Shown here piece after piece: positions 2,635 through 61,559 of a stretch of 64,000 nt of DNA. The DNA comes from Trueperaceae bacterium (GTDB taxonomy: Bacteria; Deinococcota; Deinococci; Deinococcales; Trueperaceae). The notes under the pieces are model-generated. The model did not search any database. It was given only the letters and a program-made list of their open reading frames with translations, and was not told the DNA's origin. The stretch lies in assembly GCA_965213925.1 (NCBI GenBank), contig OZ243927.1:3200001-3264000 (forward strand). The letters run 5' to 3'. Position numbers and translations under genes: made by a program. Each line of letters opens with the position of its first letter. Position 1 is the stretch's first letter.

Positions 2635-2789
2635 TAGCAGTTCCACGACACACTGAGACAGAATGTCGCAGATATCATCCCTTAAAGTGCGTGCTAGTTA
2701 TGTAATTTTCACGCAGTGAAACATCCTTTTGCAAAGTGAGAGTGTTGCTTCGCAGAACTACGTACACTCTGACCAGATGATACCTGCTA
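2635..2789 (+). repeat. Dispersed structured element, long form (155 bp)
   Basis: TAGCAGTTCCA...GCAGATATCATC...GTGCGTGCTA...ACCAGATGATACCTGCTA with two internal insertions. Confidence 0.9.
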
Positions 2790-2854
2790 AGTGTAACGCT
2801 CGTTATAGACCTGAAAAGTCATCGCACGGTCAGCCCGAACGAGGCGCTTTGCTG

Positions 2855-2886
2855 CTGACCTCACCTTGACATCGCCCCGCTACCTT
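2855..2886 (+). promoter_or_regulatory. Pho-box-like direct repeat plus -10
   Basis: CTGAC-N6-TTGAC-N10-TACCTT, 5 nt before GTG start. Confidence 0.6.
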
Positions 2887-2891
2887 GAAGC

Positions 2892-3785
2892 GTGATCACG
2901 AGGCTGCGGCGTTCCAGAAGGGTCTACGACTGGCCCGCGTACCTCTACGTCTTGCCCGCGCTCTTTTTCCTAGCGGTTTTTCTGCTCTGGCCGACGGTGT
3001 ATTCGCTGATTTTAAGCGTGCAGCGCTGGGACTTCTTGAGTGAGAATCGGCCCTTCGTGGGGTTGGAGAACTACCGGGATTTGCTTGGCAGCAGCGAGTT
3101 TCGCAATTCGCTCCGCGTGACCCTACTCTTCGTCGCTGTATCGGTGCCGGTGCGCCTGGTTCTGGCTTTAGGGCTGGCCCACCTCGTCCTGCGCGAGACA
3201 CGTCTCAACCGCTTTCTGCGCGGCGCGTACTTCTTACCCGTGGTGTCCTCCTCGGTCGCCATCGCGCTCGTGTGGCGCTACCTCTTCAATACGGACGCAG
3301 GGCTCGTCAACGCGCTCCTGACCGGGCTCGGCACGTCGCGCGTGCCCTGGCTCATCGACCCGAACACGGCGCTCTGGGCGGTCGTCATCGTGAGCGTGTG
3401 GCAGAGTCTCGGCTACGACATCGTCCTCTTCATCGCAGGGCTCCAGGCGATTCCCAAGGAGTACGTCGATGCGGCTCGCATCGACGGGGCAAGCGGCTGG
3501 CAAGTCTTCCGCTCGGTGACCTGGCCGCTCCTGACGCCTACCACCTTTTTCATCCTGGTCGTCTCGGTCATCGGCTCGTTTCAGGTCTTCGCGGTCGTGA
3601 ACGTGATGACGGGCGGCGGCCCGGCGCTAGGTACCGATGTACTTGTCAACCTGCTCTACCGCCGTGCCTTCGTCTATTTCGATATCGGACGGGCGTCAGC
3701 CTTGGCCGTCGTACTGCTCGTGATTCTGCTCATTCTCACCTACGTTCAGTTCCGTGTGGCCGGGCGGCGGGTGCACTATGGCTGA
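2892..3785 (+). CDS. Carbohydrate/glycerol-3-phosphate ABC permease (UgpA-like)
   Basis: Multi-TM; EAA loop DAARIDGAS. Confidence 0.9.
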   Translation: MITRLRRSRRVYDWPAYLYVLPALFFLAVFLLWPTVYSLILSVQRWDFLSENRPFVGLENYRDLLGSSEFRNSLRVTLLFVAVSVPVRLVLALGLAHLVLRETRLNRFLRGAYFLPVVSSSVAIALVWRYLFNTDAGLVNALLTGLGTSRVPWLIDPNTALWAVVIVSVWQSLGYDIVLFIAGLQAIPKEYVDAARIDGASGWQVFRSVTWPLLTPTTFFILVVSVIGSFQVFAVVNVMTGGGPALGTDVLVNLLYRRAFVYFDIGRASALAVVLLVILLILTYVQFRVAGRRVHYG

Positions 3786-4680
3786 CGCACGTTTCAGGCG
3801 GAACCGCGAAGCCGCGAAAGGGTTGCCTCGGGCTGCCCGTACTAAGGTCTTCCTACCCTTCGGGCGCATTCTCGCGGTAATAACAGCCCTCTTTGCCGGA
3901 CTCGTTATGGTCACACCCTTCCTCATCACCCTCAGTACCTCGCTCATGACCCTAATCGAAGCCTTCCGCTTCCCGCCACAACTTCTGCCCAACGACCCGC
4001 AGTGGCGCAACTACCTCCTTGCCTGGACGGGCGCGCCCTTCGCGCGCTACTTCTTCAACACGCTCGTGATGGCTTCGGCAATCACCGCCGGGCAGCTTCT
4101 GACCTCCATCCTGGCGGCCTACGCCTTCGCGCGGCTGCGCTTCGTCGGTAAAAATCTTCTCTTCGGGCTCTTCCTCGCCACGCTGATGATTCCCGCCCAA
4201 GTGGTGCTCATCCCCAACTATCTGACGCTCTCCAATCTCGGCCTCATCAACACTTTCGGCGCGCTCATCCTGCCCTTTCTCGCGAGCGGCTTTAGCGTCT
4301 TTCTCATCCGGCAGCACTTCAAGAGCATTCCGCAGGAGTTAGAGGACGCCGCCCGCATCGACGGGGCGAGCCGCTTCACGACCCTATGGCGTATCTTCGT
4401 GCCGCTCGCCAAACCTGCGATTGCCACTGCCGGACTCTTCACTTTCCTAAGCGAGTGGAACGCCTACTTGTGGCCTCTCATCGTCACCGACTCCCAAGAT
4501 ATGCGCACCGTGCAGATCGGTTTAGCGAGCTTTCTCGCGGTGAGCCAGGAGGAGGGGCTGACAAACTGGCCGGTCGTTCTTGCCGCGAGTGTTCTGGTGC
4601 TCTTACCGACGCTAATCGCCTTCGCGCTGGCTGAGAAGCAGCTCGTTAAGGGAATTGCGCTTTCAGGGCTGAAGGGTTGA
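3778..4680 (+). CDS. Carbohydrate/glycerol-3-phosphate ABC permease (UgpE-like)
   Basis: Multi-TM; LEDAARIDGAS, WNAYLWPL; ATG 3778 overlaps upstream stop. Confidence 0.9.
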   Translation: MADARFRRNREAAKGLPRAARTKVFLPFGRILAVITALFAGLVMVTPFLITLSTSLMTLIEAFRFPPQLLPNDPQWRNYLLAWTGAPFARYFFNTLVMASAITAGQLLTSILAAYAFARLRFVGKNLLFGLFLATLMIPAQVVLIPNYLTLSNLGLINTFGALILPFLASGFSVFLIRQHFKSIPQELEDAARIDGASRFTTLWRIFVPLAKPAIATAGLFTFLSEWNAYLWPLIVTDSQDMRTVQIGLASFLAVSQEEGLTNWPVVLAASVLVLLPTLIAFALAEKQLVKGIALSGLKG

Positions 4681-4819
4681 TAAGGAGATATAAGGAGAAC
4701 TGCCGGTGCTCTTTCTCCTCATCTCCCTATCCCAAATCTTCAGCTCTCACGCCACCTAAGTCTTTCGCGCCCGCACTATCCGCACCGGCGCTGGACAAAT
4801 CCGCACGTTGGAGGAATTC

Positions 4820-6067
4820 ATGAAACACTTCGCCCTGCTCGCCGCGCTACTCCTAACCTTCGCCACCTTCGCCCAGGCTCAAACGACCCTCACCTTCTGG
4901 CACTCATTCGGGGACAACGACGCGATGCAAACCCTTATCGAGGAGTTCAACGCCTCGCACGACGACATCCAAATTGAGGGGGTGGACGCGGGCAACTACA
5001 ACGAGATGATCACGCGCTTACAAGCGGCTGTCGTGTCGGGCCGCGTGCCGGACGTGGTGCAGTTAGAGATCACCCGCTACGGCATCTTCGCAGACCGGAA
5101 CGTGCTGCTGCCTCTGGACGAGCTGATTAGCAGCACGGGCTTCGACACGGGCGACCTCATCCCCGGCATCTGGGAAGCGGCGCAGTACGGGGACACGCCC
5201 TATGTGATTCCTTTTAACAACTCCGTGCCGGTCATGTACTACAACAAGGACCTCTTCCGCGAAGCGGGCTTAGACCCCGAGAGCCCGCCCGCGACTTGGG
5301 ATGAACTGGTATCGGCCGCGAATACCCTCACCGTGCAAGAGAACGGCGAGACGGTCCAGTACGGTCTAAGCGCCCCGCCCCAGTGGGTGCGCCACGCCTT
5401 TGTGCGGCAAAACGGCGGCGACTGGATGGACGAGGCCGTGACCGAGCTGACTCTGACCGCGCCCGAAGCGGTAGAAACTTACAGCTTTTTGCATGACCTC
5501 ATCTACAAAGAAGAGGTCGCCTACGCCGAAGCGGGCATTGACGCCAACGAAGACCTCTCCGACCAGGACTTCTTCTCGGGCCGCACCGCCATGATCTTCA
5601 CCTCGACGGGCAACCTAGGCAGTTTCCAAGAGGATACGGACTTCGAGCTGGGCGTCGCACCCTTACCCTGCAACGAGGTCTGCGCGGCCCCCATCGGCGG
5701 GGCGACTTTAGGCATCGTCGCGAGCATCCCCGAGGAGCAGCAGCAAGCCGCGTGGACCTTCATCAGTTGGATGACCAACACCGAGAACAACGCCTACTGG
5801 CACACCGAGACGGGCTATATGCCGATTCGCGCGAGCACCTTGGAGAACCAGACCTCGCAGGAATTCTACGCGCAGAACCCCAACTTCAAGATTGCCATCG
5901 ACCAGTTCCAGGCCTCGAGCTTCCCCCGCCCGCGCCCGCCCGCGATGCCGGCGATTCGTGAACTGGAGTTGACGACGTGGGAGGAGATTGCTACGAATAC
6001 CAAGAGCGTGGAGCAAGCCTTACAAGACCTCAAGACGGAGGCGGATGCGCTGCTGGCAGGAAACTAG
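4820..6067 (+). CDS. ABC substrate-binding protein (UgpB-like)
   Basis: RBS GGAGG, signal peptide, FWHS, MYYNKDLF, TGYMP. Confidence 0.88.
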   Translation: MKHFALLAALLLTFATFAQAQTTLTFWHSFGDNDAMQTLIEEFNASHDDIQIEGVDAGNYNEMITRLQAAVVSGRVPDVVQLEITRYGIFADRNVLLPLDELISSTGFDTGDLIPGIWEAAQYGDTPYVIPFNNSVPVMYYNKDLFREAGLDPESPPATWDELVSAANTLTVQENGETVQYGLSAPPQWVRHAFVRQNGGDWMDEAVTELTLTAPEAVETYSFLHDLIYKEEVAYAEAGIDANEDLSDQDFFSGRTAMIFTSTGNLGSFQEDTDFELGVAPLPCNEVCAAPIGGATLGIVASIPEEQQQAAWTFISWMTNTENNAYWHTETGYMPIRASTLENQTSQEFYAQNPNFKIAIDQFQASSFPRPRPPAMPAIRELELTTWEEIATNTKSVEQALQDLKTEADALLAGN

Positions 6068-6114
6068 AAGTAGGGAGCAAGGAGTAAGAAGCAAGGAGGA
6101 TCTGGTGAGGGGCG

Positions 6115-6840
6115 ATGCGCTCCTCACCTCACGCTATGGACCAGACAGCGTTCAAAATCATTGCCCACCGGGGTGCGTCGGCGGACGCGCCAGGCAACAG
6201 CGCCGAAGCGTTCGAGCTTGCGATTGCGCAAAAGGCCGACCTCATCGAGACGGACGTGCGGCTCACGGCGGACGGGGTGCTCGTGCTGGAACACGACCGA
6301 CAAGTTGAGGGCTTGGAAGTTCAGTACAGCACCCTGGCAGCCCTACGCAAGGTCAAACCGCACCTCTTGACAGTGGCGGGAGCCCTGCGAGAGTTCGGCC
6401 ACCGCATCCCCTTCTGCTTCGAGTGTAAGGCGGCGAACCTCGAGCACGCCCTTCTCTACCTCGTCAAAGACTTGCTTCCCGAGGCGATATGGCAGCAGAC
6501 GGAATTTACTTCGTTCAACTTCATGAGTGCGGTGACGTGTCAGAAACTGCTTGGCACACTGGGCGACGCCAACCAGGTGGGCTGGCTGACGCGGCAGTGG
6601 GACGAAGAGGCTACCAAGTTCACTCGAGAGATAGGGCTCGCGCAGCTCTGTCCGCCTGCAGCGGCGGTCTTAGCACGCCCCGAGCTGGTCCAAACAGCGA
6701 AGGACGCTGGGCTTAACGTGCGCGTGTGGCTCGTGACGGAGCCGGAGATGGTGCCTGACTTGGCGGACGCGGGCGTGTACGGCGGGACGGTCAATTTTCC
6801 TGCGGAGGTCGTAAAACTGTTCAGCTCGAAGGTTGGCTGA
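6115..6840 (+). CDS. Glycerophosphodiester phosphodiesterase family protein
   Basis: IIAHRGAS, ETDVRLTADGVLVLEHD; start could be 6136. Confidence 0.9.
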   Translation: MRSSPHAMDQTAFKIIAHRGASADAPGNSAEAFELAIAQKADLIETDVRLTADGVLVLEHDRQVEGLEVQYSTLAALRKVKPHLLTVAGALREFGHRIPFCFECKAANLEHALLYLVKDLLPEAIWQQTEFTSFNFMSAVTCQKLLGTLGDANQVGWLTRQWDEEATKFTREIGLAQLCPPAAAVLARPELVQTAKDAGLNVRVWLVTEPEMVPDLADAGVYGGTVNFPAEVVKLFSSKVG

Positions 6841-6938
6841 GCTGGTTTCTGCGATAAACGCGCATTATATGCGCAAAGCTTAGACAGTACAAAGCGTATT
6901 CCAAAGAAATTTGCGGAGAAAAAACACCTTTAATACTA

Positions 6939-7049
6939 TAGCAGTTCCACTTATCATTGCTACATTTCTTCGCAGATATCATCACTTAAAGTGCGTGCTA
7001 AACGGTGTCCTTTTTAGTGAGAGTGTAGCTGACCAGATGATACCTGCTA
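6939..7049 (+). repeat. Dispersed structured element (111 bp)
   Basis: Same conserved blocks as 2635; right end abuts the IclR stop codon. Confidence 0.9.
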
Positions 7050-7844
7050 CTACAAGACGCGACCAGACGCTTCGGCTGCTGTTCGGACCGCCTGAGCGTA
7101 CTGCGCCTGAGCTTCTACACTCAGCCGGGCGGTGAACCCGGCAACGGCAAGCGCCCCTCTAAGCCGTTCTTTTGCGTCGAGGATAGGTGAAGCGACCGAG
7201 AACTCACCCTGCGCGTAGTCGTCTCGAGAAACACGCACTCGCTCCCTCTGTACCCGGGTAAGCTCCTCACGCAAAGCTTCCTCGTCTACAAGGGTCAAAT
7301 TGGTAAAAGCTTGACGCGGCGTGGCTAAGAGCTGCTCGAGTACCCCTCCAGGTGAGAAGGCTAGCATCGCCACGCCCATCCCGCCGACGTAGAGCGGAAT
7401 CTTCGAGCCGATTGGGTAGCTCACGCGAAGCGAACGGCGCGACTCGCGCGCGTCCACAATCATACGCTCCGCGCCGACGGGAATGGAGAGCAAGACGGTC
7501 TCGCCGCTCAGCTCAGCTAATGCGTCCAGGTGCGGCGCGGTGGCGGCGATGAGGTCAAACGGCCAGGCGGCCTGCTGACCCAGGAGGTGCAGCTTCGGCC
7601 CTAAGCGGTAGCGCTTGCCCGGCTCGCGGGTGACGTAGTCTGCGCCCTCCAAGGTCGCTAAAAGGCGAAAGGTCTGGTTCGTTGTAAAGCCGGTCTGCCG
7701 TGCGAGGTCGCTCAGGGTGGGCGCGTCTGCGGCGGCCAAGGTCTCGAGCAACTGCAGCGCGTTTTGGACACTCTGGACGGTCGGGAGGGCTTTCGGCGGT
7801 GAGACATCTCGGCGGGTACGCGTCGCATGATGTGAAGATGACAT
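7050..7844 (-). CDS. IclR-family transcriptional regulator
   Basis: N-terminal HTH (VQSVQNALQLLE, YRLGP), SGETV, C-terminal GAF-like domain. Confidence 0.9.
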   Translation of the reverse strand: MSSSHHATRTRRDVSPPKALPTVQSVQNALQLLETLAAADAPTLSDLARQTGFTTNQTFRLLATLEGADYVTREPGKRYRLGPKLHLLGQQAAWPFDLIAATAPHLDALAELSGETVLLSIPVGAERMIVDARESRRSLRVSYPIGSKIPLYVGGMGVAMLAFSPGGVLEQLLATPRQAFTNLTLVDEEALREELTRVQRERVRVSRDDYAQGEFSVASPILDAKERLRGALAVAGFTARLSVEAQAQYAQAVRTAAEASGRVL

Positions 7845-7858
7845 CGTTTTCCTATCAT
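7827..7858 (+). promoter_or_regulatory. Pho-box-like direct repeat plus -10
   Basis: ATGAT-N6-ATGAC-N10-TATCAT upstream of lipoprotein/ABC operon. Confidence 0.5.
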
Positions 7859-7929
7859 AACCCTGTCCGGTTAGCAGAAACGTTTTTCTGGTGAACAGAA
7901 AATATCAACCCGGGCCCTGGGAGGACAGA

Positions 7930-8832
7930 ATGACGAAAGGACATCTTTGGGTTTCTATCCTGGCGGCGCTCATGCTCTCGGCGTGCAGCAGCGTGACTGA
8001 GCCTGAGATTGAGACGACGCAGACCAGCACCAACCAAATCGCCGCACACCGGGGCGACTTAGAGGCGCGGCCCTCAGGCTGGATCAAAACCGAGTGGGAC
8101 AACAGCGTCCAGGCTATCAGCAGCGCCCGCAACAAGAGCGTCAGCCTCACCGAGGTGGACCTGCAGCTCAACCGCTCCGCGAGCGCGCTCGCGCAAAACC
8201 CCGACGGCATCCTCTATCTCCACCACGAGAGCACCTGCGACGTGATCGACCAAAACGGTCGGCCCACTGGCGAAAGGCACAACGTCGCGACCGCCTCCCT
8301 CGCGCAGGTAGACAGGTGTGCGGAGCGCCTCAGCAACGTTCTCAATACCTACGCGGGCAGCACATTTATCCTCGAGATGAAGTTCAACGCACGCTACGCC
8401 AGCCAGATACCTAAAGCGCTCTACAACTTGCTTAGGGCGCGAGGCGAGCGCACCGTACACGTGGTGTCGTCGCTCGAGCCCGACTTGCTCGAAGACCTCA
8501 AGGCGTTCGCGGATGCCGACCGCGTCAGCATGAGCCTGCTGCGCGTCTTCGGCTGGCGTCCCTTTCAGTGGAAGTGGGTCTCGCAGGGCAATATCCGCGA
8601 CGCGCAGAATAAGGGCTTCAACTGGGTTGCGTTCCACTACGAAAACGTCAGCGAGGCGAATATCGACTACGCCCAAAATCTGGGCCTCACCGTCGGCGGT
8701 TGGCACTGGGATGACCCGCCTACGGGCTCAGCCGTAACCTGCAGCCAGGCCGCGCCTTGGGCCGACCGCAACACCTTGGGCTTCATGATCATCGACTGCA
8801 TCGGTGACCTCAAAGCTCGAGGCTGGCGCTGA
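7930..8832 (+). CDS. Lipoprotein with divergent GDPD-like phosphodiesterase fold
   Basis: RBS GGAGG, lipobox LSAC, AHRG, EVDLQL, ILEMK. Confidence 0.7.
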   Translation: MTKGHLWVSILAALMLSACSSVTEPEIETTQTSTNQIAAHRGDLEARPSGWIKTEWDNSVQAISSARNKSVSLTEVDLQLNRSASALAQNPDGILYLHHESTCDVIDQNGRPTGERHNVATASLAQVDRCAERLSNVLNTYAGSTFILEMKFNARYASQIPKALYNLLRARGERTVHVVSSLEPDLLEDLKAFADADRVSMSLLRVFGWRPFQWKWVSQGNIRDAQNKGFNWVAFHYENVSEANIDYAQNLGLTVGGWHWDDPPTGSAVTCSQAAPWADRNTLGFMIIDCIGDLKARGWR

Positions 8833-8901
8833 CCGAAAACTGATGCAGGGATGAAACACAGCCGTTACGCTGCTCGCCCCCTTACTTCATGGAGGTTCAC
8901 G

Positions 8902-9903
8902 ATGCGCATATTCGTTCTTTTCACCTTAGCGCTGTTCACGCTCTCTACCGCCTTCGCCCAAGACGACCTTGTCGTCCCCTACAACGCCCCTGAGCAGTGG
9001 GCGAACTGGGGCGAGGTCTTAGAAACCTTCACTCAAGAGACCGGCATCGAAGCGCCGACTGACCCCAAAAACAGCGGGCAAACCCTAGCCGCCCTGCAAG
9101 CCGAAGCTGCTAATCCCCAAGCCGACACCGCTTACTATGGCATCGTTTTCGGCATCCAAGCCGCTGAGGAGGGTGTGGTGGCGGCGTATCAGCCCGAGGG
9201 TTTCGCGGACATCCCCGAGGCGCTTAAAGACCCCGAGGGTCGCTGGTTCACGGTGCATCAGGGCGCGATTGCGTTTCTGGTCAACACCGAAGAGTTGGAC
9301 GGCGCGCCCGTGCCGCAGTGCTGGGAAGACCTAACCGACCCGCAGTACGAAGGCTTAGTGGGCTTTCTCGACCCGACCCAAGCGGCGGTCGGCTACTCGG
9401 TGGTGACGGCGGCAAACTTGGCGCTGGGCGGTTCCTTAGAGGACTTCTCGCCTGCGGTCGAGTACTTCAGTCAACTCTTCGGTAACGGGCTCATCTTGCC
9501 CGCGCAGACCGCCACGGCGATGGTGCAGCAGGGCGAGATTCCTATTCTCATCGACGCGGACTTTAACGGTTACCAGCTCGCCAACGACGAGGGCACACCT
9601 ATAGAGGTCGTCATCCCCTGCGAGGGTTCTTTGGCGATTCCCTACGTGATGTCGCTTGTAGAGGACGCGCCGCGCGCGGAGAACGGCCAAGCCCTCTTGG
9701 ACTTCGCGCTCTCCGACGAAGGTCAGCAGCTCTTCGCGGCGAGCTATCTGCGCCCGGTCCGCAACGTCGAGGTGGACCCCAGCATCGCCGAGCAGATGCT
9801 GCCGAGCGCGGAGTACGAGCGCGTCGCCATGCCCGACTTCGCAGCCATGCAAGCCGCGCAAACGAGCTTCACCGAGCGCTGGCAGGGTGAAGTGACGCGC
9901 TGA
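8902..9903 (+). CDS. ABC substrate-binding protein (Fe3+/polyamine/phosphonate-like family)
   Basis: Signal peptide, KNSGQTLAAL, KDPEGRWFTVH. Confidence 0.85.
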   Translation: MRIFVLFTLALFTLSTAFAQDDLVVPYNAPEQWANWGEVLETFTQETGIEAPTDPKNSGQTLAALQAEAANPQADTAYYGIVFGIQAAEEGVVAAYQPEGFADIPEALKDPEGRWFTVHQGAIAFLVNTEELDGAPVPQCWEDLTDPQYEGLVGFLDPTQAAVGYSVVTAANLALGGSLEDFSPAVEYFSQLFGNGLILPAQTATAMVQQGEIPILIDADFNGYQLANDEGTPIEVVIPCEGSLAIPYVMSLVEDAPRAENGQALLDFALSDEGQQLFAASYLRPVRNVEVDPSIAEQMLPSAEYERVAMPDFAAMQAAQTSFTERWQGEVTR

Positions 9904-9904
9904 G

Positions 9905-10720
9905 GTGAGGCGTTTTGCTCAAGGGGCGGCTTCGGTCGCTCCCCTGCTCATTATCTTGGGAGCGTTCCTACTCTACCCGCTTCTGGTCATCGCACTGCAC
10001 AGTCTCTCGGGAGACGAAGCAACCTTCTCGTTCGCCCTCTACGCGGACACCCTAACCAACCCGCGCTACTTCCGCGCGTTCGGCTTCACGGCGCTCTTAG
10101 CAGTCGCCTCGACGGCGCTAGCGCTTATCGTGTGCGTGCCTGCCGCTATCTACATCGAAGGGGAGCAGAGCCGGGCGCGGCGCGTGGCAGCGGTGCTCCT
10201 CACTGTGCCGCTCAGCTTGCCGGGCATCGTCATCGGCTTCTTTGTGATTTTAGGCTTCGGACGAACAGGCGTGGTGACGGACGCACTAGAAGCGGTAACG
10301 CCCCTACGCAATCCGCAGCTCGCCTACACCTTCTGGGGGCTGCTCCTCGGTTACGTGTACTTCCAAATTCCTCGAGTGATCCTGGTTATACGCGGCGCAG
10401 TATCAGGCATCTCCAACGACGTCGTGAACGTGGCCCGGACGCTCGGCGCGTCGCCGTGGCGGGTTTACATGGAGGTCGTATCACCTGCCCTGCGCCCGGC
10501 CCTGGTCAGCGCCTCGAGTCTCAGCCTTGCCACGGCCTTCGGCGCGTTCGGCACGGCGGCGACGCTCTCGAGGGGTACCCGCGTCGTCCCCATAGAAATC
10601 GCCGCGCTCTTCACCGAGCGCTTCGAACCCGCACGGGCGGCGGCGCTCTCCATCGTTCTAGGCGTTATCACCGTAACGCTGCTCCTCGGGGTGGCTCGGC
10701 TGGGCGGGCGAGACGGATGA
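9905..10720 (+). CDS. ABC permease
   Basis: Multi-TM; VARTLGAS. Confidence 0.88.
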   Translation: MRRFAQGAASVAPLLIILGAFLLYPLLVIALHSLSGDEATFSFALYADTLTNPRYFRAFGFTALLAVASTALALIVCVPAAIYIEGEQSRARRVAAVLLTVPLSLPGIVIGFFVILGFGRTGVVTDALEAVTPLRNPQLAYTFWGLLLGYVYFQIPRVILVIRGAVSGISNDVVNVARTLGASPWRVYMEVVSPALRPALVSASSLSLATAFGAFGTAATLSRGTRVVPIEIAALFTERFEPARAAALSIVLGVITVTLLLGVARLGGRDG

Positions 10721-11547
10721 GCGCACAAACGCTGAGCCAGCCTCAAAAGCGGCGGGTGCGGGCAGGAACGCGCGACCCCTTGCAGCGCATCGGGCGGGTG
10801 CTCGCCTGGTTCACCGTGGCAGTCTGCGCCGCGCCGCTGCCCTTGCTACTTGCCGTGGCGACGACCGCGCAGTGGCGCAGCGGCTTCTGGGCGGAGGGCT
10901 TCACCTTGCAGTGGCTCATCTCCGGCTGGATGCGCATCGCCCCGCACGCGCTCTACAGCTTGCAACTCGCGCTCACCGTTCTACTACTCAATATCCTCAT
11001 CGGTTTGCCTGCAGCCTGGGCATTGGCGCGGTTACGCTTTCCGGGTCGCGCGGCGCTCCTCGCGCTCGCCAACTTGCCCCTCGCCATCCCTGGCATTGCG
11101 GTGGCTCTAGGGCTCATCCTGGCTTACCCGTACTTGCGCGGAGATGGATTCTTGCTCACCGCCGGTCATGTGCTCTACACACTACCCTTCTTCTTGGGCA
11201 CGCTCACGCCGGTATTAGGCGGCGCGGCGCTTAGAGAGCGCGAGGCGGTTGCAAAGACGCTTGGAGCAGGCGCGGTACGCCGCTTCGTCTTCATCACCTT
11301 GCCGAGCGTCCGCCGGGCGCTCTTGGCGGCGGCGATCATGGTTGTAACACTGTCTATGGGAGAATTCAACGTGTCGTTTTTCCTTTTCACGCCGACCGCA
11401 AAAACGCTGCCCGTCGAACTCTACGACGCCTACATCACGGGGCGCTTGGAGGCCGCGGCGGGAATGACGGTCTGGTTCTTGCTCTTCGTCGTGCCTGCGA
11501 CGCTCGTCTTGGAGCGCTTCGGTGGCGGCAAGGTTGGGCAGGCGTGA
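10717..11547 (+). CDS. ABC permease
   Basis: ATGA overlap at 10717; EAVAKTLGA, SMGEF. Confidence 0.88.
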   Translation: MSAQTLSQPQKRRVRAGTRDPLQRIGRVLAWFTVAVCAAPLPLLLAVATTAQWRSGFWAEGFTLQWLISGWMRIAPHALYSLQLALTVLLLNILIGLPAAWALARLRFPGRAALLALANLPLAIPGIAVALGLILAYPYLRGDGFLLTAGHVLYTLPFFLGTLTPVLGGAALREREAVAKTLGAGAVRRFVFITLPSVRRALLAAAIMVVTLSMGEFNVSFFLFTPTAKTLPVELYDAYITGRLEAAAGMTVWFLLFVVPATLVLERFGGGKVGQA

Positions 11548-12587
11548 GGGCGGATCGGCGTCAGGCGGCGTCACTTACGTTTGAGCACGTGACGTTTAGC
11601 TACGGCGTCACCCTAGCGGTGGACGACGTGAACCTAGACGTGCGTCCGGGCGAACTCATCACGCTAGTCGGACCCTCAGGCTGCGGCAAGTCCACCTTGC
11701 TCAAGCTCATCTCTGGACTTCTCAACCCGAACGCAGGGCGGCTCTTGATGGATGGTGTGGATGTCCAGCACCTCCCACCGGAGAAGCGGCAAATGGGCTG
11801 GATGCCGCAGAGCTACGCGCTCTTCGAGCACCTGAACGTTGCGCAGAACGTCGCGTTTGGACTCAGGATGCAAGGTGTGTCCAGACAGGAGCAAAAGCAG
11901 AGAGTTGAAGAGGTGTTGGGGCTATGCCATATTAGCGACCTGGCAGATCGGCCCGTCACCGCCCTCTCCGGCGGACAGCAGCAGCGCGTGGCGGTGGCGA
12001 GGGCGCTGGCGGTGCGTCCGCGCGTCCTGCTCCTCGACGAACCGCTCGCCGCGCTGGACCCGCAACTGCGCTTAGAACTTCGCTCGGGCTTGGAGAGGCT
12101 CTTGCGCGAGAGCGGCGTCACCACGCTTTTCGTCACGCATGACCAGGGCGAGGCGCTAGCGCTCGCGGACCGGGTGGCGCTGCTGCGTGGGGGGCGGCTC
12201 GAGCAGTTCGGCTCGCCCGAAACCCTCTGGCAAGCGCCCGCGAGCGCCTTCGTCGCCTCCTTCATCGGCAACGCCACCGTGCTGCCGACCAAGCGCGTGT
12301 CGGCGCAGGAGTTGGAGGTTTTGCCGCAACTCTGCGTCCATCATTGCGGCGCGGACGCGCCCGAGGTCGCCCTGCGCCCCGGCGACGTCGTCCCGGCTGA
12401 CAGCGGCGTGCCCCTCGTGGTCGTCGCAGTGGAATACGCAGGCGGACAGTATCAGGTGACGGGCAAGCACAGCAGCGGCGCGCCGCTGCTGTTTTTTAGC
12501 GATACCCGCCTCGAGCTGGAGGAGCCCGTCTGGGTGCGGCTGCGCGACGACCACGCGCCCTCTATCATCGGAGGGTCGCGTGGCTGA
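11544..12587 (+). CDS. ABC ATP-binding protein (PotA/FbpC-like)
   Basis: GPSGCGKS, LSGGQQQR, LLLDEP. Confidence 0.93.
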   Translation: MRADRRQAASLTFEHVTFSYGVTLAVDDVNLDVRPGELITLVGPSGCGKSTLLKLISGLLNPNAGRLLMDGVDVQHLPPEKRQMGWMPQSYALFEHLNVAQNVAFGLRMQGVSRQEQKQRVEEVLGLCHISDLADRPVTALSGGQQQRVAVARALAVRPRVLLLDEPLAALDPQLRLELRSGLERLLRESGVTTLFVTHDQGEALALADRVALLRGGRLEQFGSPETLWQAPASAFVASFIGNATVLPTKRVSAQELEVLPQLCVHHCGADAPEVALRPGDVVPADSGVPLVVVAVEYAGGQYQVTGKHSSGAPLLFFSDTRLELEEPVWVRLRDDHAPSIIGGSRG

Positions 12588-13371
12588 GCTGCTCGTTATC
12601 GGCTGTCGCGCCGGGTCACCGGGTGCGGAGGGCCCCGCATCGGGGTACGTCCTCTTTGCAGGCGAGAAAACGCTCCTTATCGACTGTGGTCCGGGGGTGG
12701 TGGCGAGCTTAGCGGCGCGGGGGCTGATTGAGCAGCTAGACGCCGCCATCGTCACTCACGCCCACGCCGACCACTGCGCCGACCTCGTCGCGCTCGCGTA
12801 CCACCGGCTCTTCCCGGTGCGCATGGAGCCCTTGCCGCTCTACGGACCTGCCGCGTTGCGGGCGACCCTCACCGCCTTAGACCAGGTTTTCGGCATTCCG
12901 ACGCTGCCCGACCTGAACGCACCTCTCGCCGCCGCGCTGCCCTTTACCGCGCTGAGCGCAAACGCTGCGGAGCACGTTGAAGGGTTCAGGCTCGAGACCC
13001 ACAGAACCGTTCATCCCGTCGAGACGCTCGCGCTGCGTTTTCCGGCGTTCGGCTTGACCTATACCTCGGACGGGGCGCTGACGGACGGGCTCGTGGAGTT
13101 TGTACAGGGCACGTCAACCCTCCTCGCCGAAGCGACCTACCTCTCGGACGACGTTTCGGATGGTGGTGCAGACCTTGGTGCGCACGGACATATGACCGCA
13201 GCGCAAGCGGGCACTCTAGCGCAGCGCTCGGGCGCACAGACGCTGATTCTCACGCACCTCACTGATTTCGCGCAGGCGCGTGCCTACCGTGAAGAGGCGC
13301 TGAAGCGCTTTGAGAACGTACAGGTTGTAAAGCCAGGACTTCGGCGGGAAGTGGGGTTTGAACTCATATGA
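12580..13371 (+). CDS. MBL-fold hydrolase (RNase Z-like phosphodiesterase)
   Basis: THAHADH, LIDCGPG, EATY, GHMT, LTH. Confidence 0.88.
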   Translation: MAELLVIGCRAGSPGAEGPASGYVLFAGEKTLLIDCGPGVVASLAARGLIEQLDAAIVTHAHADHCADLVALAYHRLFPVRMEPLPLYGPAALRATLTALDQVFGIPTLPDLNAPLAAALPFTALSANAAEHVEGFRLETHRTVHPVETLALRFPAFGLTYTSDGALTDGLVEFVQGTSTLLAEATYLSDDVSDGGADLGAHGHMTAAQAGTLAQRSGAQTLILTHLTDFAQARAYREEALKRFENVQVVKPGLRREVGFELI

Positions 13372-13375
13372 ACTA

Positions 13376-14258
13376 ACCCCAATTCGGAAAAGGGAAATTC
13401 AAAGCTCAAATGCCCCTAAACGGCTGAGTTGGTAAGCGAGCAAGGTGGTGTAAACGTGCAGGATGCAGCCCACCGTCGAGCGGTAGGGTCTGTCAGAGAG
13501 TCCAAGTCTATCCAAGGACGAGAAGACCGACTCAACGATGCGGTGTCCTTGGTAAAGCCTCTGCTCACGCTTGGGCGGGGGTAGCTGGTTGCTGCGGCGC
13601 GGGGTTATAAGGTCAACCGCTTGGGAGGCAACGTCGGCTTTAAGCTCGGAGCTGATATAGCCTTTATCGGCGGTTACAATGGCGTAAGTGAGTTTGTCTA
13701 GTAGGCGAGGCGCGACCTTAACATCATGTTCGTTCGCGCCTCGCAGCAGTACCTCACAGAGTCTGCCTGTATCGTCCACACGCGCATGAAGCCGAAAGCC
13801 ATAGAAGGTGGTGTTATGGACGTGGTCACGCCCATAACTGCCCGCAAGCTTGGTCCTTTTAGCACGGGCAAAATCTACTACTTCTAGTTTCTTCGAGTCG
13901 AGGTGCTGTTTCGTCGTGTTATGCCCGGTGCAAAGCTGTTTAACCGCGAGAATAATCTGTCCTATCAGGAGGCGCTTACGCTCACAAAACGTTGAGGGTA
14001 CAGGTACGTCCACGCCGAACGATGCAGCAACTTCAAGCATCTTCCGGCTATAGCGAAAACTCGACAGCTTCTGATAGACCGCTAAGGCGATGATGAACGA
14101 GTCTGGAAAAACAGGAGCACGTCCTTGAGGGGCTTTTCTACGCTTCTTGAGGGGTAAACGTTCGACGGCTTGTATAATCTCTTCGAGGGTTGGGATTTTG
14201 CGCATACATCATTGCAACCCTCACTTCTCCCGCTGTCAAATCTTTTCCGAATTGGCGT
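13376..14258 (-). mobile_element. IS982-family insertion sequence
   Basis: 17-bp IRs ACCCCAATTCGGAAAAG / CTTTTCCGAATTGGCGT (1 mismatch); flanks GAACTA / GAACTT. Confidence 0.85.
13399..14205 (-). CDS. IS982-family DDE transposase
   Basis: LDSK, FYGFRLH, ANEHD, ADKGY, RIVESVFS. Confidence 0.85.
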   Translation of the reverse strand: MRKIPTLEEIIQAVERLPLKKRRKAPQGRAPVFPDSFIIALAVYQKLSSFRYSRKMLEVAASFGVDVPVPSTFCERKRLLIGQIILAVKQLCTGHNTTKQHLDSKKLEVVDFARAKRTKLAGSYGRDHVHNTTFYGFRLHARVDDTGRLCEVLLRGANEHDVKVAPRLLDKLTYAIVTADKGYISSELKADVASQAVDLITPRRSNQLPPPKREQRLYQGHRIVESVFSSLDRLGLSDRPYRSTVGCILHVYTTLLAYQLSRLGAFEL

Positions 14259-14300
14259 GAACTTGTGAATCTACGGGTTTTCGTAATCCGGTGTTAGAAA

Positions 14301-14411
14301 TAGCACTTCCAAGATATACTGAGACAAATGAGCGCAGATATCATCTCTGAATGTGCGTGCTAGACGGGCCTTGCTTCACTGAGCGTGTCTCAAACCAGAT
14401 GATACCTGCTA
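14301..14411 (+). repeat. Dispersed structured element (111 bp)
   Basis: TAGCAC...TGAGACA...GCAGATATCATC...GTGCGTGCTA...TGTCTCAAACCAGATGATACCTGCTA. Confidence 0.9.
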
Positions 14412-14492
14412 AAACTACTCGAGACGGCGTGGACATTTCGAGCCAGCCTCCCGTCTCATTAGGGAAGACGGTAGGTCTTTAGCGAGTCTTCC

Positions 14493-14524
14493 CTGACAAA
14501 ACACTGACGCCGGTCCCTAAAACT
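14493..14524 (+). promoter_or_regulatory. Pho-box-like direct repeat plus probable -10
   Basis: CTGAC-N6-CTGAC followed after 9 nt by TAAAACT, upstream of phosphatase. Confidence 0.55.
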
Positions 14525-19680: not shown

Positions 19681-20650
19681 TCATCTGGTTGCTAGCCGAG
19701 GGCAAGTCTCAGCAAGAGGTTGTTGCGCTCACGGCATATAACCGCACGAGCGTCTATGACGCCGTGAAGCGCTATAACGCCGAAGGGCTGCGTGGTTTAC
19801 GAGACAGACGACACGAAAATCCCGGTTGTCCGCCGCTCATCAGCGAAGCGGAGCGTGTGGGGCTGCTGGAAGCTACGCAAGCAGAGGATGGGGGCGTGTG
19901 GAGTGCCGAGCGGATTCGGGATTGGGTCAAGGCGCAACTTGGCAAAGAGGTCTACACACAGCGGGCTTACGAACTACTTGATCAACTCGGGTTTAGCGTG
20001 CAAAGCCCTCGCCCACGACATACAAAAGCAGATCGCGAGGCGCAGGACACGTTCAAAAAAAACGTCTTACCTGAGCGCGTAGCGCCCGCCCGCCGCAACT
20101 CCCAAGAGGTCGAGCTGTGGGCAATGGACGAGCACCGGGTTGGGCTCAAACCGATCTTGCGCAAAGTGTGGGCTCCTAAGGGGCAGCGTCCCATTGCACG
20201 AGTACAATATCGCTTCGAGTGGCTTTACCTCTGGGCGTTCGTCAACCCGCAAAGTGGGCAGTGCATCTGGTACATCTTGCCCACTGTGAGCACCCTAGCG
20301 TACAGCCGCGTTTTGCAGAACTTCGCCCGCTCTGTAGGTGCATCTCCGGATAAGCGCGTCCTGCTTTTGCAAGACCAGGCAGGGTGGCATACCTCCAGCA
20401 AGCTCGAGGTCCCTCCCGGTATCAACCTCATTGACCTACCACCTTATTCACCAGAACTTCAACCCGCTGAGAAGTTATGGCGGCTTACCGATGAACCTCT
20501 CGCTAATACATGCTTTGACGACCTTGATGCGCGACAAAACACCCTTGATCAACGTTGCGAGTTTCTTCTGAGCCAGCCTGACCTCATCTCACAAGAAACC
20601 CTCTTCCACTGGTAGCCCCTAACATGATAGAGATTTAATCGGAATCCGTA
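19680..20650 (+). mobile_element. IS630-family element, 5'-truncated, transposase 19689-20615
   Basis: Begins mid-HTH (VIWLLAEGKS); DEHR, QDQAGWH, PYSPELQPAE; sequence ends GGAATCCGTA. Confidence 0.85.
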
Positions 20651-28578: not shown

Positions 28579-29106
28579 TTGAACGGTAGAGTTCGGTGAC
28601 TAACCAAGTCCCAGCCACGCTCGTCGTTTTGGCTGCCCCTACGCCTGTGATCGTCAAGCTTAGGCGTGTGCATAGATCGCTGCACAGACGAGAACAGATT
28701 GTTCGTGGCTCCCAACTCAGAAGCGTTGGAAGACAACCCTAACGAACGCACTCCCACGGCGATCGAAGCGATGGCGGCGTAGACGTAAAGGTGAGCTTAG
28801 CGTCCGCTCTCCTGGACCAAATTTCGGCAATCTTCTCGAACCTCTCTAAGGTTAACGCGCGCAACTGCCGCAGAATGGTTCGTCCATTAAAAAGCGCTCA
28901 CGGTAGGGAGGGCGGCGACGCCAAACTTACGCGGCGTGCGGTGGCGTCTTCTTCTGCCCCAAACGTAAGGGTGCTTGTGGTCATTCCAGTAGGCAGTGGC
29001 TCTTCGAATGGGCTCAACCATCTCGGTCCAGACCTCGAAGCGCCTGCCTTTGAGAGCTAAAGAGCGTAACGTCTTCCACCAGGGCTCGGTGAGGTTGAGA
29101 TACCCC

Positions 29107-32285: not shown

Positions 32286-32338
32286 ATGACAAGTATATCA
32301 CTTTCGTATGAGGGTAGGGTGCGCACTTCTTCCCAACT

Positions 32339-35961: not shown

Positions 35962-37297
35962 TGGTTCGTCCATTAAAAAGCGCTCACGGTAGGGAGGGCG
36001 GCGACGCCAAACTTACGCGGCGTGCGGTGGCGTCTTCTTCTGCCCCAAACGTAAGGGTGCTTGTGGTCATTCCAGTAGGCAGTGGCTCTTCGAATGGGCT
36101 CAACCATCTCGGTCCAGACCTCGAAGCGCCTGCCTTTGAGAGCTAAAGAGCGTAACGTCTTCCACCAGGGCTCGGTGAGGTTGAGATACCCCTAGGTGAT
36201 CGCCGCTAGGCGAATCCGGTCCTGTGCCCTGCGAAGCGGGTATTGTCGGTAACCTAGCGTACTTGGGCTGGAAGACGAACTCCCACCTGGGGTGAGCCAG
36301 ACTAAAAAGGAGCACGTCGTAAGAGCTGTGCATGTAGAGATTGTCGATGATGGCGTAGATGTGCTTGACCTCGGGCGGGACCCACTGCTCGACCTTTCCC
36401 AGAAACTCGGTATAGTGCCCGCCGATGCGGCGCGGGACCATCTCAGTGAATACTGCGCCTGAGGCGGGTTCTAATGCGCCGAAGACGAAACCACCTTTCG
36501 GGCGATGTGTATAGTCAAGCGCGACTTTCGCGCGTCCGGCGGGGGGTCCACGAATTTTGGTCAGCTCCTTACCTTCATATGTTCTTGAGGCGAGCGGTCC
36601 CATCTCGTCTATGCAGAGGACGACGTTGTTCTCTGGTGGGTCGGTGTAGAGCTGTAGGGTGGCACCCTTTTTTCAGCGAACTCGGGGTCCACCTTTTGTC
36701 CATACCACCCTCCTTGTTGTCGCCAAAGGTTACCGCCAACGGCGGCTAGCGGGAGCGGGACCACGCGACTTCGCTTTACGCGATCACCTGTCCTGAGCCC
36801 CTCGTTCCTGAAGATTTCGCTCATGCGACTGCGCCCCATCATGATGCCTTCCTCTTCGCTGAGATACGCTACCAGCCTATCTAAGGTCCAAGAGCCGAAA
36901 GGTAGTCCTAGCTCATCAGGTTTCGTTAAAGCCGTTTGAATAACAGTGCCGACATGCTCGCTTTTGTAGATGTGAGGTCGCCCGTGACGCGGGCTTTCTT
37001 CTAAACCAGGAATACCCAGCTTCGTGAAGCGGTTCACCCACTTGCGCACCGTCTGGTGGTGTAGCTCGAGCTTCTCGGCAACCTCGTGCACTGACAGCCC
37101 TAAGTTCGACTGCAAGACAATCCGCGCCCGACGCACTTTGCTCACACCCATCGTCCTCGAACGTTCCCACCTTTTAAGTTCTTGATACTCTTCTTCGGTT
37201 AGCCGACGAACACGGGCATACGGGCGCACGGCTCACCTCCACTAGAATTGAGAACTCTAGCTTAGTCCTGAGTCGAATTAACTGGATGAGCCAATAA
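35962..37297 (-). mobile_element. IS630-family element copy 2 (inserts at 36193-36256 and 36726-36791)
   Basis: Offset 7086 from copy 1; identical ORF translations. Confidence 0.92.
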
Positions 37298-50029: not shown

Positions 50030-50442
50030 TGTCACCCCTTAATGTGATATGCATTAGAATACTGACTTATTTACGACTGTGCGTTACCGAGCCCACGTTG
50101 AAGTTCAGCGAGCAACCTCAACCTAATTTCGTGAAAACTCACGCATCACCTCGGTTAGATTTTTGCTAATGTTGACAATGAAAATGAACCGTTGCGAGAA
50201 AAGCTCCGGTTTGAACAGATAATCGGTTGTAACGTGACGTTAAAATCGTCCTAGCACCTACTGACGGCTTCCAGATACTAAAATACTCCAATCAAGAGAA
50301 GCGCAGATAAACATTGAGCAAGCCATTATGGACCTCCTCGAGGGGTTCAGAAACCCAACTCAGTAGTCTAGCATATATTGAGATAGAAGAGGTCAAGGTA
50401 AGCCATCTTACTGGCTTACCTCAACTGCATCTGGTGCTTGAA

Positions 50443-50542
50443 GCAGATATCATCCTTACAATGTGAATGCCAATCAATGGCGCTTTCTACGAAGAGCGTT
50501 ACTTCGCAGGACTTCGTACATTGTGACCAGATGATACCTGCT
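50443..50542 (+). repeat. Dispersed structured element, core with internal insert
   Basis: GCAGATATCATC...ACCAGATGATACCTGCT; insert resembles that of copy 2635. Confidence 0.85.
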
Positions 50543-50546
50543 TACC

Positions 50547-55771: not shown

Positions 55772-55845
<74 letters not shown>

Positions 55846-59806: not shown

Positions 59807-59838
59807 AAAAAAAGCGAGAGGTTGGCGTCAACCTCTCT
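59807..59838 (-). terminator. rpmE terminator
   Basis: GAGAGGTTG / CAACCTCTC stem with T tract on minus strand. Confidence 0.75.
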
Positions 59839-59846
59839 AAGTATTT

Positions 59847-60068
59847 TTACTTCTTACGGTTGCGGCGGTAGCTCTCGCCGAAACGCTTCTGGAACTTCTC
59901 GACGCGACCTTCGGTGTCGATAAAGCGCTGCTGCCCCGTGTAAAAGGGGTGATTACCCGACCACACGTCTACGCGGACCTCGGGCTTGGTGCTGTAGGTT
60001 TCCATCACGACTTCGCCGTCGCAGTAAACTTTGCACGGGACCATCTTGGGGTGAATATCTTTTTTCAT
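59847..60068 (-). CDS. rpmE: 50S ribosomal protein L31
   Basis: MKKDIHP, HPFYTG, GRVEKF. Confidence 0.98.
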   Translation of the reverse strand: MKKDIHPKMVPCKVYCDGEVVMETYSTKPEVRVDVWSGNHPFYTGQQRFIDTEGRVEKFQKRFGESYRRNRKK

Positions 60069-60424
60069 AACATCTCCTTTTGCGGATAACGGCTCTATAA
60101 TTCAAACGCTACAGGCGTTCTGCCTGCAAAACAAACTTGATTCTAGCAGACATGGCTCGGCGTCCACAACTCGGCACGAACCGGTCCAGCAATTCCAAAC
60201 GGAAGCGGTAGTTTGTGGAGACGGAAAAGTAGCTCGAGCGAGTGGATACTCGCACGCTCGGTGCGTGCTCGTGTCGGCGCAAACATCACCTTGATTTTGT
60301 CGGCTACTCAACCCGTACCCTGAGCCAGAACTTCGACTTCTTGAAATTCTCTGTTTCCCGCCCGAAAGGTTGGCGAAATTTTCACTTGGCTGCACAAGCT
60401 CGGCATTTTTCGTTATGCTAGAGT

Positions 60425-61327
60425 GTGATTCGTTCCCTTGCCCCCGACGAGCTAGAGTGGTTTATCGCATCTTATTACGACTTTTTAGGGCACAGCGACC
60501 CTCGGCACTTCGCGCGGCGAGCCGTGCGCAAGGTTCACAACGTGGCGCACCACCTAGAGCAGGAGGCGGACCGCTCCTTCATCCTCTTTTCAGAAGGAGA
60601 CGTGCCGCTCGCGGGCGCTCACATCATCGCGCCCGAGCCCGATGACGACGACCAAAACCTCTATTTGAGCAACATCTGGTTCAAGCGTGACGCCGAGGAT
60701 TTGCAGAGGCTTTTAGCGAAGCTGTTACGCAGGTTCGACCATGAGGCGGTGCACTGCCCGCTCTACAACTTCTCGGAGGCGCGTTTGGCGCGCGTGCAGC
60801 CCGTGTTTGAGGCACTCGGCTTTACACTCCGCCACGCTTACGACCTGGAATTCGAACTGAGCGAGCTGCCCCCCTTGGGCACACCTCTGGTGCTCGAGGC
60901 GTGGAGCGACGAGAGCGACGCGCTCTTCCGGGAGGTCTATAGAGACGCCGAAGGCAGCGACCCGTCCGACGGCTTCTGGGCTTGGCTCAAACGCTGGCGC
61001 GGACCCTTCCGCCCCAACTTGTGGTTTACCGCGAGCGAGACGCTCGACCAGGAACCCGTCGGCTACGCCTTTTACGGCAGATATAGCGGCGGCGTAGACG
61101 GCGTCTACTACCTCACGGCGGCGGGCGTTTTAGCGGAGCACCGGGGCTCGAGCGACATGCTTAAACGCCTCATGATTTCGAGTATGCACGAACTCGCCGC
61201 CCGCAGCCCCCTCGGGCGCATCCAGACGCTCGTCACGCAGCAAGACCCCAAACTCATCGAGATTTTGGAGTCGTTAGGTTTCAGGCGGCGCGACGCCTAC
61301 CCTGCGTTTATCAAGCGTCCTGAATAG
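60425..61327 (+). CDS. Hypothetical tandem GNAT-fold protein
   Basis: GVLAEHRG, LESLGF; TATGCT box before GTG. Confidence 0.65.
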   Translation: MIRSLAPDELEWFIASYYDFLGHSDPRHFARRAVRKVHNVAHHLEQEADRSFILFSEGDVPLAGAHIIAPEPDDDDQNLYLSNIWFKRDAEDLQRLLAKLLRRFDHEAVHCPLYNFSEARLARVQPVFEALGFTLRHAYDLEFELSELPPLGTPLVLEAWSDESDALFREVYRDAEGSDPSDGFWAWLKRWRGPFRPNLWFTASETLDQEPVGYAFYGRYSGGVDGVYYLTAAGVLAEHRGSSDMLKRLMISSMHELAARSPLGRIQTLVTQQDPKLIEILESLGFRRRDAYPAFIKRPE

Positions 61328-61448
61328 AGTAGGACATACAGATCGACTTTCGTATTCCACATTTCTTTGCGTCTCGCGTCGCCCAAATCCTAATATACGG
61401 TAGTGGTTTCAAGTCCAATGCTGCCATGTGCTCCTTATGCTATCTCTA

Positions 61449-61559
61449 AAGCAATTCGCATAAACACTGAGCTTGAGTCACGTAAGTATCATTCTCGAAT
61501 GTGCGTGCTCGTCAATGTTGTCTCTTCCCGGATTGGCTCAAACCAAATGATACTTGCTA
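61449..61559 (+). repeat. Dispersed structured element, diverged (111 bp)
   Basis: GTAAGTATCATT...GTGCGTGCT...AATGATACTTGCTA, same spacing, compensatory changes. Confidence 0.85.

Follow-up and report, generated by a model that had tools for sequence, protein, structure and literature searches.

The dispersed repeat of about 111 bp is very probably a non-autonomous IS630-family MITE of Trueperaceae and not a folded RNA gene. A family profile recovered four full copies of the repeat (E values from 1e-26 to 7e-20) in the window, the whole 64,000-nucleotide stretch of DNA analysed here, confirming that the repeat is real. The genome-wide search with this profile returned 209 matches at E<1e-3 and 221 at E<0.01, while the reversed chromosome, used as a control, gave only 4 matches with a best E of 1.6. 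The repeat has the properties of a prokaryotic MITE: it is 111 bp long, non-coding and dispersed in 209 copies, it carries TIRs, albeit imperfect ones (in register i+j=112, positions 2-5 pair in 78-97% of copies and positions 21-24 in 55-74%), and it shows target duplications and filled/empty polymorphism. The preliminary description had already suggested an IS630-type MITE, a reading that was correct and for which an end-matched transposase has now been found. As far as its ends and duplications go, the repeat does not fit the REP/REPIN or IS200/IS605 (HUH) classes, and the strict pattern of the MITE was absent from the 236 genomes searched from other Deinococcota families. Three subfamilies, A, B and C, can be distinguished, in each of which the inner block (positions 20-26) matches on both ends. 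The copies in the window and their parts are:

2635..2789, + strand: MITE copy of subfamily A, 111 bp plus two nested modules, with the duplication AGT at 2632-2634 and 2790-2792
2698..2720, + strand: 23-bp nested hairpin module after element position 63, where 8 family copies have a module
2746..2766, + strand: 21-bp nested module that splits the right inner-TIR block after element position 88; 12 copies have one there
6939..7049, + strand: MITE copy of subfamily C, with the 3-bp duplication CTA
14301..14411, + strand: MITE copy of subfamily A, with the 3-bp duplication AAA
14301..14336, + strand: left end, in register with and equal to the right end of IS630 (tip 1-5, positions 6-11, block 20-26 at 14320-14326)
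element positions 31-36 within 14301..14336, + strand: antisense remnant of Cys-Gly codons, part of the IS630-derived left end
14334..14345, + strand: inner arm, an inverted copy of the right arm; putative left TIR, now buried, of a symmetric older MITE of 78-80 bp, with no cleavable tip
14386..14392, + strand: right inner-TIR block, varying with subfamily; its TIR register with 20-26 is exact (i+j=112)
14394..14411, + strand: right arm and tip, hardly varying between subfamilies or genera
50438..50543, + strand: old MITE copy directly after the stop codon of rplL, with a decayed left end; genomes G001 and G002 have it at the same place
50501..50521, + strand: 21-bp nested module of the rplL copy, absent from the orthologous copies in G001 and G002
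61449..61559, + strand: MITE copy of subfamily B, with a TA duplication; it sits inside a different dispersed repeat, the paralogues of which have the site without the insertion
988..1063, - strand: possible degenerate copy, not significant alone (988-1048, E 0.21)

Several elements of the preliminary description held: the offset of 33 nt and the core of 76 nt, the pair of swaps at 61482, and the match between positions 20-26 and 86-92 within a copy. Of the two further copies that it had listed, the one at 50443 was significant (5.5e-06), but the reverse one at 988 was weak; moreover, the former is not a "core only" form but an old copy whose left end has decayed and which carries a 21-bp module. 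Likewise, the "long form" is the 111-bp element with nested modules of 23 and 21 bp, and the right block of copy 2635 had looked weak solely because it is interrupted by a module. Stem 1 falls short of perfect pairing, 38/105 being A.C in the copies at 2635, 6939 and 14301. The terminal TA is part of the element, with the duplication lying outside it and reading TA only at 61449.

Scoring duplications among MITE copies with intact tips against shuffles revealed that the subfamilies differ in their target sites. A 3-bp duplication flanks 37 of 48 subfamily A copies (shuffled mean 2.3, maximum 9) and 8 of 15 subfamily C copies (shuffled mean 1.3, maximum 6), with TA in 1/48 and 0/15, respectively, whereas no subfamily B copy (0/35) has a 3-bp duplication and 32 of the 35 are bounded by TA..TA. 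The TA target and 2-bp duplication expected of an IS630 MITE are thus the rule in B only; because A and C almost always lack them and follow an IS630 clade of their own, the MITE is a variant and not a plain member of this class. Empty sites were also found: the site of window copy 6939 is 114 bp shorter in contigs of runs X2, X3 and X4 (in G002 it is occupied by a different element), and paralogous empty sites were found for two B copies and one A copy. Comparing 41 G002 copies with G000 gave flank pairs for 9 and clean empty sites for only 3, two with 3-bp duplications (L153, L155) and one with TA (L162). For window copies 2635, 14301 and 61449 the orthologous sites in G001 and G002 were rearranged or uninformative.

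The two ends of the MITE have different relationships to IS630. In register, the left 36 bp are an IS630 right end, from an element of 1 kb, and include the Cys-Gly codons of the transposase C-terminus, which explains the 33-nt offset; the right end matches IS630 ends only at the tip and the inner block. An IS630 element of G000 (C1:1889067-1890059) carries the subfamily A tip and block on both ends, and two others have the C block on the left end, though in autonomous elements, unlike in the MITE, the block is not always alike on both ends. Using TIR profiles built only from 9+9 autonomous elements, we found that the MITE left end prefers the 3-bp clade (see below) in 30/30 A, 13/13 C and 0/28 B copies, and that the left ends and duplications of B match a separate group of autonomous IS630 elements. 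The MITE right end is a weak fit to either profile (about 3 bits or less); no autonomous element with this end was present among 30 DDE_3 loci of five genomes, in a profile scan or among the multi-copy repeats of G000, a metagenome scan yielding three chance matches only. Stand-alone symmetric cores of 78-80 bp do occur in the relative G018. Among copies interrupted in the right arm, 0/18 have siblings at >=93%, compared to 37/82 uninterrupted ones.

The partner elements conform to IS630 in the DD34E spacing in alignment, a split ORF and a slippery A-run, A7G, at the ORF junction. The transposase of C1:1889067-1890059 matches NF033545 at 123 bits (cut-off 100), a further match scoring 109.9 bits, and the best PDB matches are Tc1/mariner structures; no relative of the transposase was found in viral contigs. 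With the ends of autonomous elements placed by eye, 13 of 22 copies in a fully supported clade (1.000) have a direct 3-bp duplication and 0/22 have TA..TA, while the neighbouring IS630 branches show TA in 10/13 and TCA in 2; the nine remaining copies of the clade include two with 4 bp and two apparently reciprocally exchanged. Examples of TA-group elements are those of G022 and G140. This pattern indicates that a natural IS630 lineage has probably abandoned TA targeting and the 2-bp stagger, and it could equally be uncatalogued or already catalogued as such. The transposases of the two groups differ in the loop that follows the first catalytic aspartate (VPRN.G versus APKGKK type); judged by spacing, this loop may correspond to Mos1 R186/F187, but this is only a guess.

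We propose that the MITE would be moved in trans, by cut and paste, by IS630-family DD34E transposases, a reading that is very likely on sequence comparison; its polymorphic insertions are dispersed, its left end is homologous to IS630 and the duplications of its subfamilies mirror two autonomous IS630 groups, from which the partner of each subfamily is inferred. An IS630 right end may have been fused, over a 3-base overlap, to a symmetric 78-80-bp MITE, one TIR of which was thereby buried as the inner arm. As in Mos1 and ISY100, the first helix-turn-helix of the transposase would bind the inner block, with cleavage at both outer tips; since both ends need the block read by the current partner, within-copy complementarity would arise without any fold. 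The ancestral type, represented by B and by forms in other genera, presumably uses TA/TNA-targeting IS630 elements, and A and C would have acquired the right end of the derived clade, which inserts with a stagger of 3 bp and little regard to sequence. The four linked changes in stem 1 are most readily understood as a single conversion between the arms or as the joint alteration of a binding site.

The covariation on which the preliminary description had based selection on structure (a bistable or pseudoknotted RNA or ssDNA) is inverted-repeat matching combined with subfamily linkage. RNA folding of three copies on both strands gave z-scores of -0.95 to +0.38, close to shuffles, and by our own MI-APC calculation the top five of 5565 column pairs were all unpaired, such columns covarying more than the paired ones, with 10 of the 12 stem-1 pairs ranking 248 or lower. 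Parsimony on the tree attributed the two stem-1 compensations to at most 2 right-arm changes; pair 38/105, which changed 29 times on one side and once on the other, is A.C in 43 of the 146 genome copies having both bases. Covariation beyond phylogeny and a stable fold, which would mark a structured RNA, were both absent by these measures. In Rfam no curated family matched: gathering mode on the window returned tRNAs only and E-value mode on 900-14500 two chance matches. An HDV-like or other pseudoknot, considered for the crossing order of the two stems, was dropped, as the outer "stem" occupies the TIR register and the folding does not stand out.

These data leave room for a role of the inner arm. 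It is unlikely that the inner and right arms of the MITE are in addition a selected hairpin (RNA or ssDNA) or a host-protein site aiding amplification or the host. Consistent with this, conservation at positions 94-110 is still 84-100% in 45 old copies, both arms survive between genera that differ in the middle, ranks 6 and 13 of 5565 are taken by pairs 37/106 and 45/98, the 34 copies with T106 show almost no mismatch at 37, and an A-type copy in G005 may be a second origin of the 37/106 swap; furthermore, the rplL copy is kept in three genomes and co-oriented copies in tandem gene gaps number 63 versus 41 by crude local ORF calls. Yet folding is no better than in shuffles and most changes are uncompensated, including those on the inner arm of the orthologous rplL copies, and wobble-type changes favour no strand (13 vs 26, variable centre 37-40 excluded). 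Copies with a module in the inner arm have near-identical siblings (one B pair, one A pair), although a hairpin insert could leave a partial stem. A related scenario, in which a conserved 78-bp core, selected as a fold or host-protein site, was repeatedly re-fitted with the ends of the active IS630 group, alongside an IS630 lineage no longer bound to TA and the 2-bp stagger, is likewise unlikely.

That a single transposase moves all subfamilies, the duplication length being set by the MITE's own ends, is improbable. The right tip is common to all subfamilies, and G000 and G002 yielded only 3-bp-clade transposases even though B is young there; however, 21 of the 35 B copies share the first base of A and still duplicate TA, and the left ends and duplications of B match a separate autonomous group. 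A missing partner is, moreover, common (G001, G005, G020). Counting against the proposed change of partner, no TA-group partner for B was found in G000, G001, G002, G005 or G020, though B has identical young copies, and G001 gave no partner of either group with the transposase query used. More doubtful still is a structured RNA or ssDNA element, as yet undescribed, that spreads through reverse transcription or the action of an HUH nuclease. A right end that is fixed while left ends are eroded, right arms that stand alone and 20-32-bp tandem right-end arrays, observed in several genomes, would suit it, as would the lack of an Rfam match, but it is at odds with the two-ended TIR register, the IS630-derived left end, the fixed 2- or 3-bp duplications and the unremarkable folding. 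The tandem ends are explained by insertion into the MITE's own target-like blocks at 20-22 and 90-92, as seen in L074 and L084; this was preferred to a TPRT reading of the tandem ends, which was rejected.

The IS630 MITE of Trueperaceae resembles RUP of Streptococcus pneumoniae, a 107-bp repeat attributed to IS630-Spn1, in size, intergenic dispersal, copy number (about 100-200) and assignment to IS630 by end similarity and target (PMC2229807), but, compared by description, it differs in the separate origin of its ends, a buried third TIR and two subfamilies without TA duplication. ERIC/MITEPlu5 and Correia (NEMIS) are likewise described as IS630-related MITEs with hundreds of diverged copies and length variants; they form very stable long hairpins (PMC6267812, PMC2229807), which the Trueperaceae MITE does not, and its length variants come from nested modules. 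With ISY100, IS630 and Mos1 the system shares DD34E, a 1-kb element with unequal ends, imperfect 24-28-bp TIRs and two HTH motifs with the inner part near 22-26 (PMC2170065, PMC5481204, PMC4505599). IS630/Tc1/mariner transposases are described there as strictly TA-specific with a 2-bp stagger, ISY100 giving normal TA duplications in 34/39 (PMC2170065, PMC5481204, PMC4505599), whereas in the clade reported here the 3-bp duplications vary in sequence and the terminal TA is a part of the element. The Emigrant MITE of Arabidopsis, whose Lemi1 transposase binds sub-terminal repeats besides the TIRs, offers a precedent for an accessory inner site (PMC1636448), though it is of the eukaryotic pogo type and inner-arm binding in the Trueperaceae MITE is hypothetical. 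Changing the TA/2-bp rule is a stated engineering aim (PMC5481204), and a natural, largely sequence-free 3-bp clade beside TA/TNA neighbours allows what sets stagger and target to be tested directly. The MITE family also shows a non-autonomous element outliving the loss of its partner by changing its ends, and it would, if the core was re-fitted, record a switch of transposase and target rule; TIR matching with subfamily linkage, we caution, mimics RNA covariation.

The length variants of the MITE arise from nested modules of 18-28 bp at fixed positions. These modules resemble the small dispersed repeats (SDR) of Nostoc reportedly described by Elhai et al. in 2008, a likeness that applies to the passenger modules and not to the 111-bp element.

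The 111-bp dispersed repeat is a new family of non-autonomous IS630-type MITEs, the class to which RUP, ERIC/MITEPlu5 and Correia are assigned in the available text of PMC2229807 and PMC6267812, and no description of it was found by sequence look-up or in the literature, mostly openly accessible main texts. Its interest lies in an apparent switch of transposase partner and in a clade of IS630 elements without TA targeting. In the 4.75-Mb genome (G000), a family profile built from three copies and refined with 56 full 111-bp copies gave 209 matches with E<1e-3; the reversed chromosome gave 4 (best E 1.6). Five window copies reported previously (2635, 6939, 14301, 50443 and 61449) were significant, and the supposed reverse copy at 988 was not (E 0.21). 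A strict two-arm pattern occurred in 7 of 364 Deinococcota genomes, every one within the family Trueperaceae, and a looser DNA query matched 17 of 128 genomes of this family, in 9 of 36 genera. A public genome scan revealed at least 35 loci, and all 35 among the matches listed were titled Truepera or Trueperaceae.

Block 20-26 defines three subfamilies (A, B and C) and is linked to the right block (86-92), classified copies being AA (56), BB (37), CC (17) or A/C mixtures (3). Target duplications were counted in the 209 matches plus copies from 80 loci of three other genomes (40 from G002, taken as the first of its 75 exact right ends; 20 from G005, out of 25 such ends; and 20 from G001 picked for similarity to window copies). 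Both tips were intact in 126 copies, and 98 of these could be classed as AA, BB or CC. Among the latter, direct 3-bp duplications flanked 37/48 A copies (shuffled mean 2.3, maximum 9), 8/15 C copies (mean 1.3, maximum 6) and 0/35 B copies, and TA occurred on both sides of 1/48, 0/15 and 32/35, respectively. The insertions are polymorphic: contigs from three sequencing runs of one study (X2, X3 and X4) skip 114 bp at copy 6939, so that its terminal TA belongs to the element. Other empty sites agree with the counts: comparison with G000 shows a 3-bp duplication for the G002 copies L153 and L155 and TA for the G002 copy L162, and comparison with paralogous repeats shows TA for copy 61449. Of 28 Truepera sp. 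loci among the matches listed, 25 were readable (one lacked flank, one repeated another, one was interrupted), with 11 TCA/TGA, 6 TA, 5 other 2-bp and 3 absent duplications.

A screen for solitary left ends retrieved the end-matched transposase whose existence had been left to check:

G000 chromosome (C1) 1889067-1890059: 993-bp IS630 element with a two-ORF transposase

This transposase exceeds the IS630 family cut-off and has DD34E spacing, with an A7G run where the two ORFs join. Both ends of the element agree with the MITE left end at the tip, 6-11 and 20-26. For its right end the register continues as far as position 36, where the antisense of the transposase C-terminal Cys-Gly codons is found, which sets the 33-nt offset noted previously. 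An older symmetric MITE makes up positions 32-111: two cores of 78-79 bp with these arms stand alone in genome G018, one of them between TA flanks, and the form in G079 is extended less far on the left. The reported 'stem 1' (34-45 with 98-109) is therefore the TIR pair of this core, its left tip buried, and we infer that the core was joined to the IS630 right end through a 3-base overlap. Modules of 18-28 bp inserted after positions 35, 39-40, 62-63, 88, 99 and 102 account for the long forms. About 60 such nested hairpin inserts occur genome-wide at fixed MITE positions, stacked up to several deep (window 2698-2720, 2746-2766 and 50501-50521), and one lies inside a transposase gene near window 29640.

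By analogy with ISY100 and Mos1, the MITE would be moved in trans by a partner transposase through cut-and-paste, and both ends would need the block that this transposase reads, a requirement that would make the blocks complementary within each copy. The available text describes a 24-bp IR protected by the ISY100 transposase (PMC2170065) and, for Mos1, a first HTH at the inner IR with the catalytic domain holding the tip (PMC4505599). Strict TA targeting with 2-bp duplication is likewise stated there (PMC5481204, PMC2170065). Bacterial IS630 elements with 3-bp non-TA duplications were not found in the literature, mostly openly accessible main texts, and those described here may already stand in the ISfinder catalogue. 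Some Tc1-superfamily elements duplicate TNA.

Sequences related to the transposase are present in 61 of the 301 genomes searched from the phylum. A tree built on the catalytic part places nine elements in a single clade (support 1.000) in which all nine share a five-base tip and other sequence replaces the VPRN.G motif following the first aspartate; its 22 copies (7 of 9 G142 loci taken in) comprise 13 direct 3-bp, 2 4-bp and 5 unmatched duplications, none TA..TA, and 2 copies that look reciprocally exchanged. Nine elements on neighbouring branches, not necessarily a clade because the tree is unrooted, vary in the first base, and their 13 copies show 10 TA, 2 TCA and 1 unmatched duplication. 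According to TIR profiles from these 9+9 elements (ends of the G057 and G059 elements left out), the left end of the MITE goes with the 3-bp clade in 30/30 A, 13/13 C and 0/28 B copies, and its right end is weakly inclined towards the TA group. G002 carries five copies of an element bearing the C block, and C copies make up 10/41 of exact-right-end copies at its loci versus 4/78 in G000, a comparison of two genomes only. Against this assignment of partners count the lack of one for B in the five genomes searched, of any in G001 with the transposase query used, and of an autonomous element bearing the MITE right end. Other features of the window are:

13374-14258, 19689-20615, 28876-30205 and 35962-37297: an IS5-type element and other-group IS630 elements, ends unlike the MITE's
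31354-33322: RES/Xre toxin-antitoxin pair next to a tyrosine recombinase

The preliminary description suggested a possible structured RNA or ssDNA family under selection for structure; our data do not support a structured RNA. An Rfam search of the window returned tRNAs only, and folding z-scores ranged from -0.95 to +0.38 (three copies, both strands). In MI-APC (153 copies, effective 88), unpaired columns took the top five of 5565 ranks; stem-1 pairs 37/106 and 45/98 ranked 6 and 13, but non-paired 98/106 and 45/106 ranked 4 and 12, so the four columns move together in one B sub-lineage, and the remaining 10 stem-1 pairs ranked 248-3398. On a tree of 144 copies, right-arm columns 98, 106, 104 and 105 changed 2, 2, 1 and 1 times, compared to 7, 5, 15 and 29 changes in the inner arm. 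None of 18 copies with an interrupted right arm (one false call) had a near-identical sibling, versus 37/82 uninterrupted copies, and two sibling pairs are interrupted within the inner arm (one scored so; L136/L169 mis-binned and read by eye). On these small numbers, the right arm seems to be needed for mobility and an intact inner arm not. Positions 94-111 are near-invariant and the inner arm persists between genera, which may reflect an accessory binding site (with precedent in the available text of PMC1636448), conversion of one arm by the other, or a fold.

Solo right arms, often soon after stop codons, and right-end tandem arrays (periods 20-32 bp) occur in genomes G046 (loci L283, L276), G107 (L314), G108, G020 and G005; self-insertion explains those of the first three only in part. 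Other MITEs, symmetric and ~100 bp long, have two ends of the 3-bp-clade type and lie at C1:801587, 855121, 1027241, 1476116 and 4396296 and at loci L026 and L123; in G019 one such MITE interrupts a transposase gene of the 3-bp clade. A copy of the 111-bp MITE at C1:3196381, 3.6 kb ahead of the window, contains an inserted IS630 from another group and has lost its right part. Copy 61449 is hosted by another dispersed repeat (about 61400-61625, at least 17 paralogues), probably a second MITE family, with ends resembling those of a multi-copy 771-773-bp element. The site of copy 6939 is an insertion hot spot, its orthologue in G002 (L043) holding a different ~160-bp element with its own inverted ends at the same spot. 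In the rplL-rpoB gap of G001 (L047), a second, degenerate copy lies upstream of the shared rplL copy. In tandem gene gaps of the G000 chromosome, the MITE is co-oriented in 63 cases versus 41, based on crude ORF calls.
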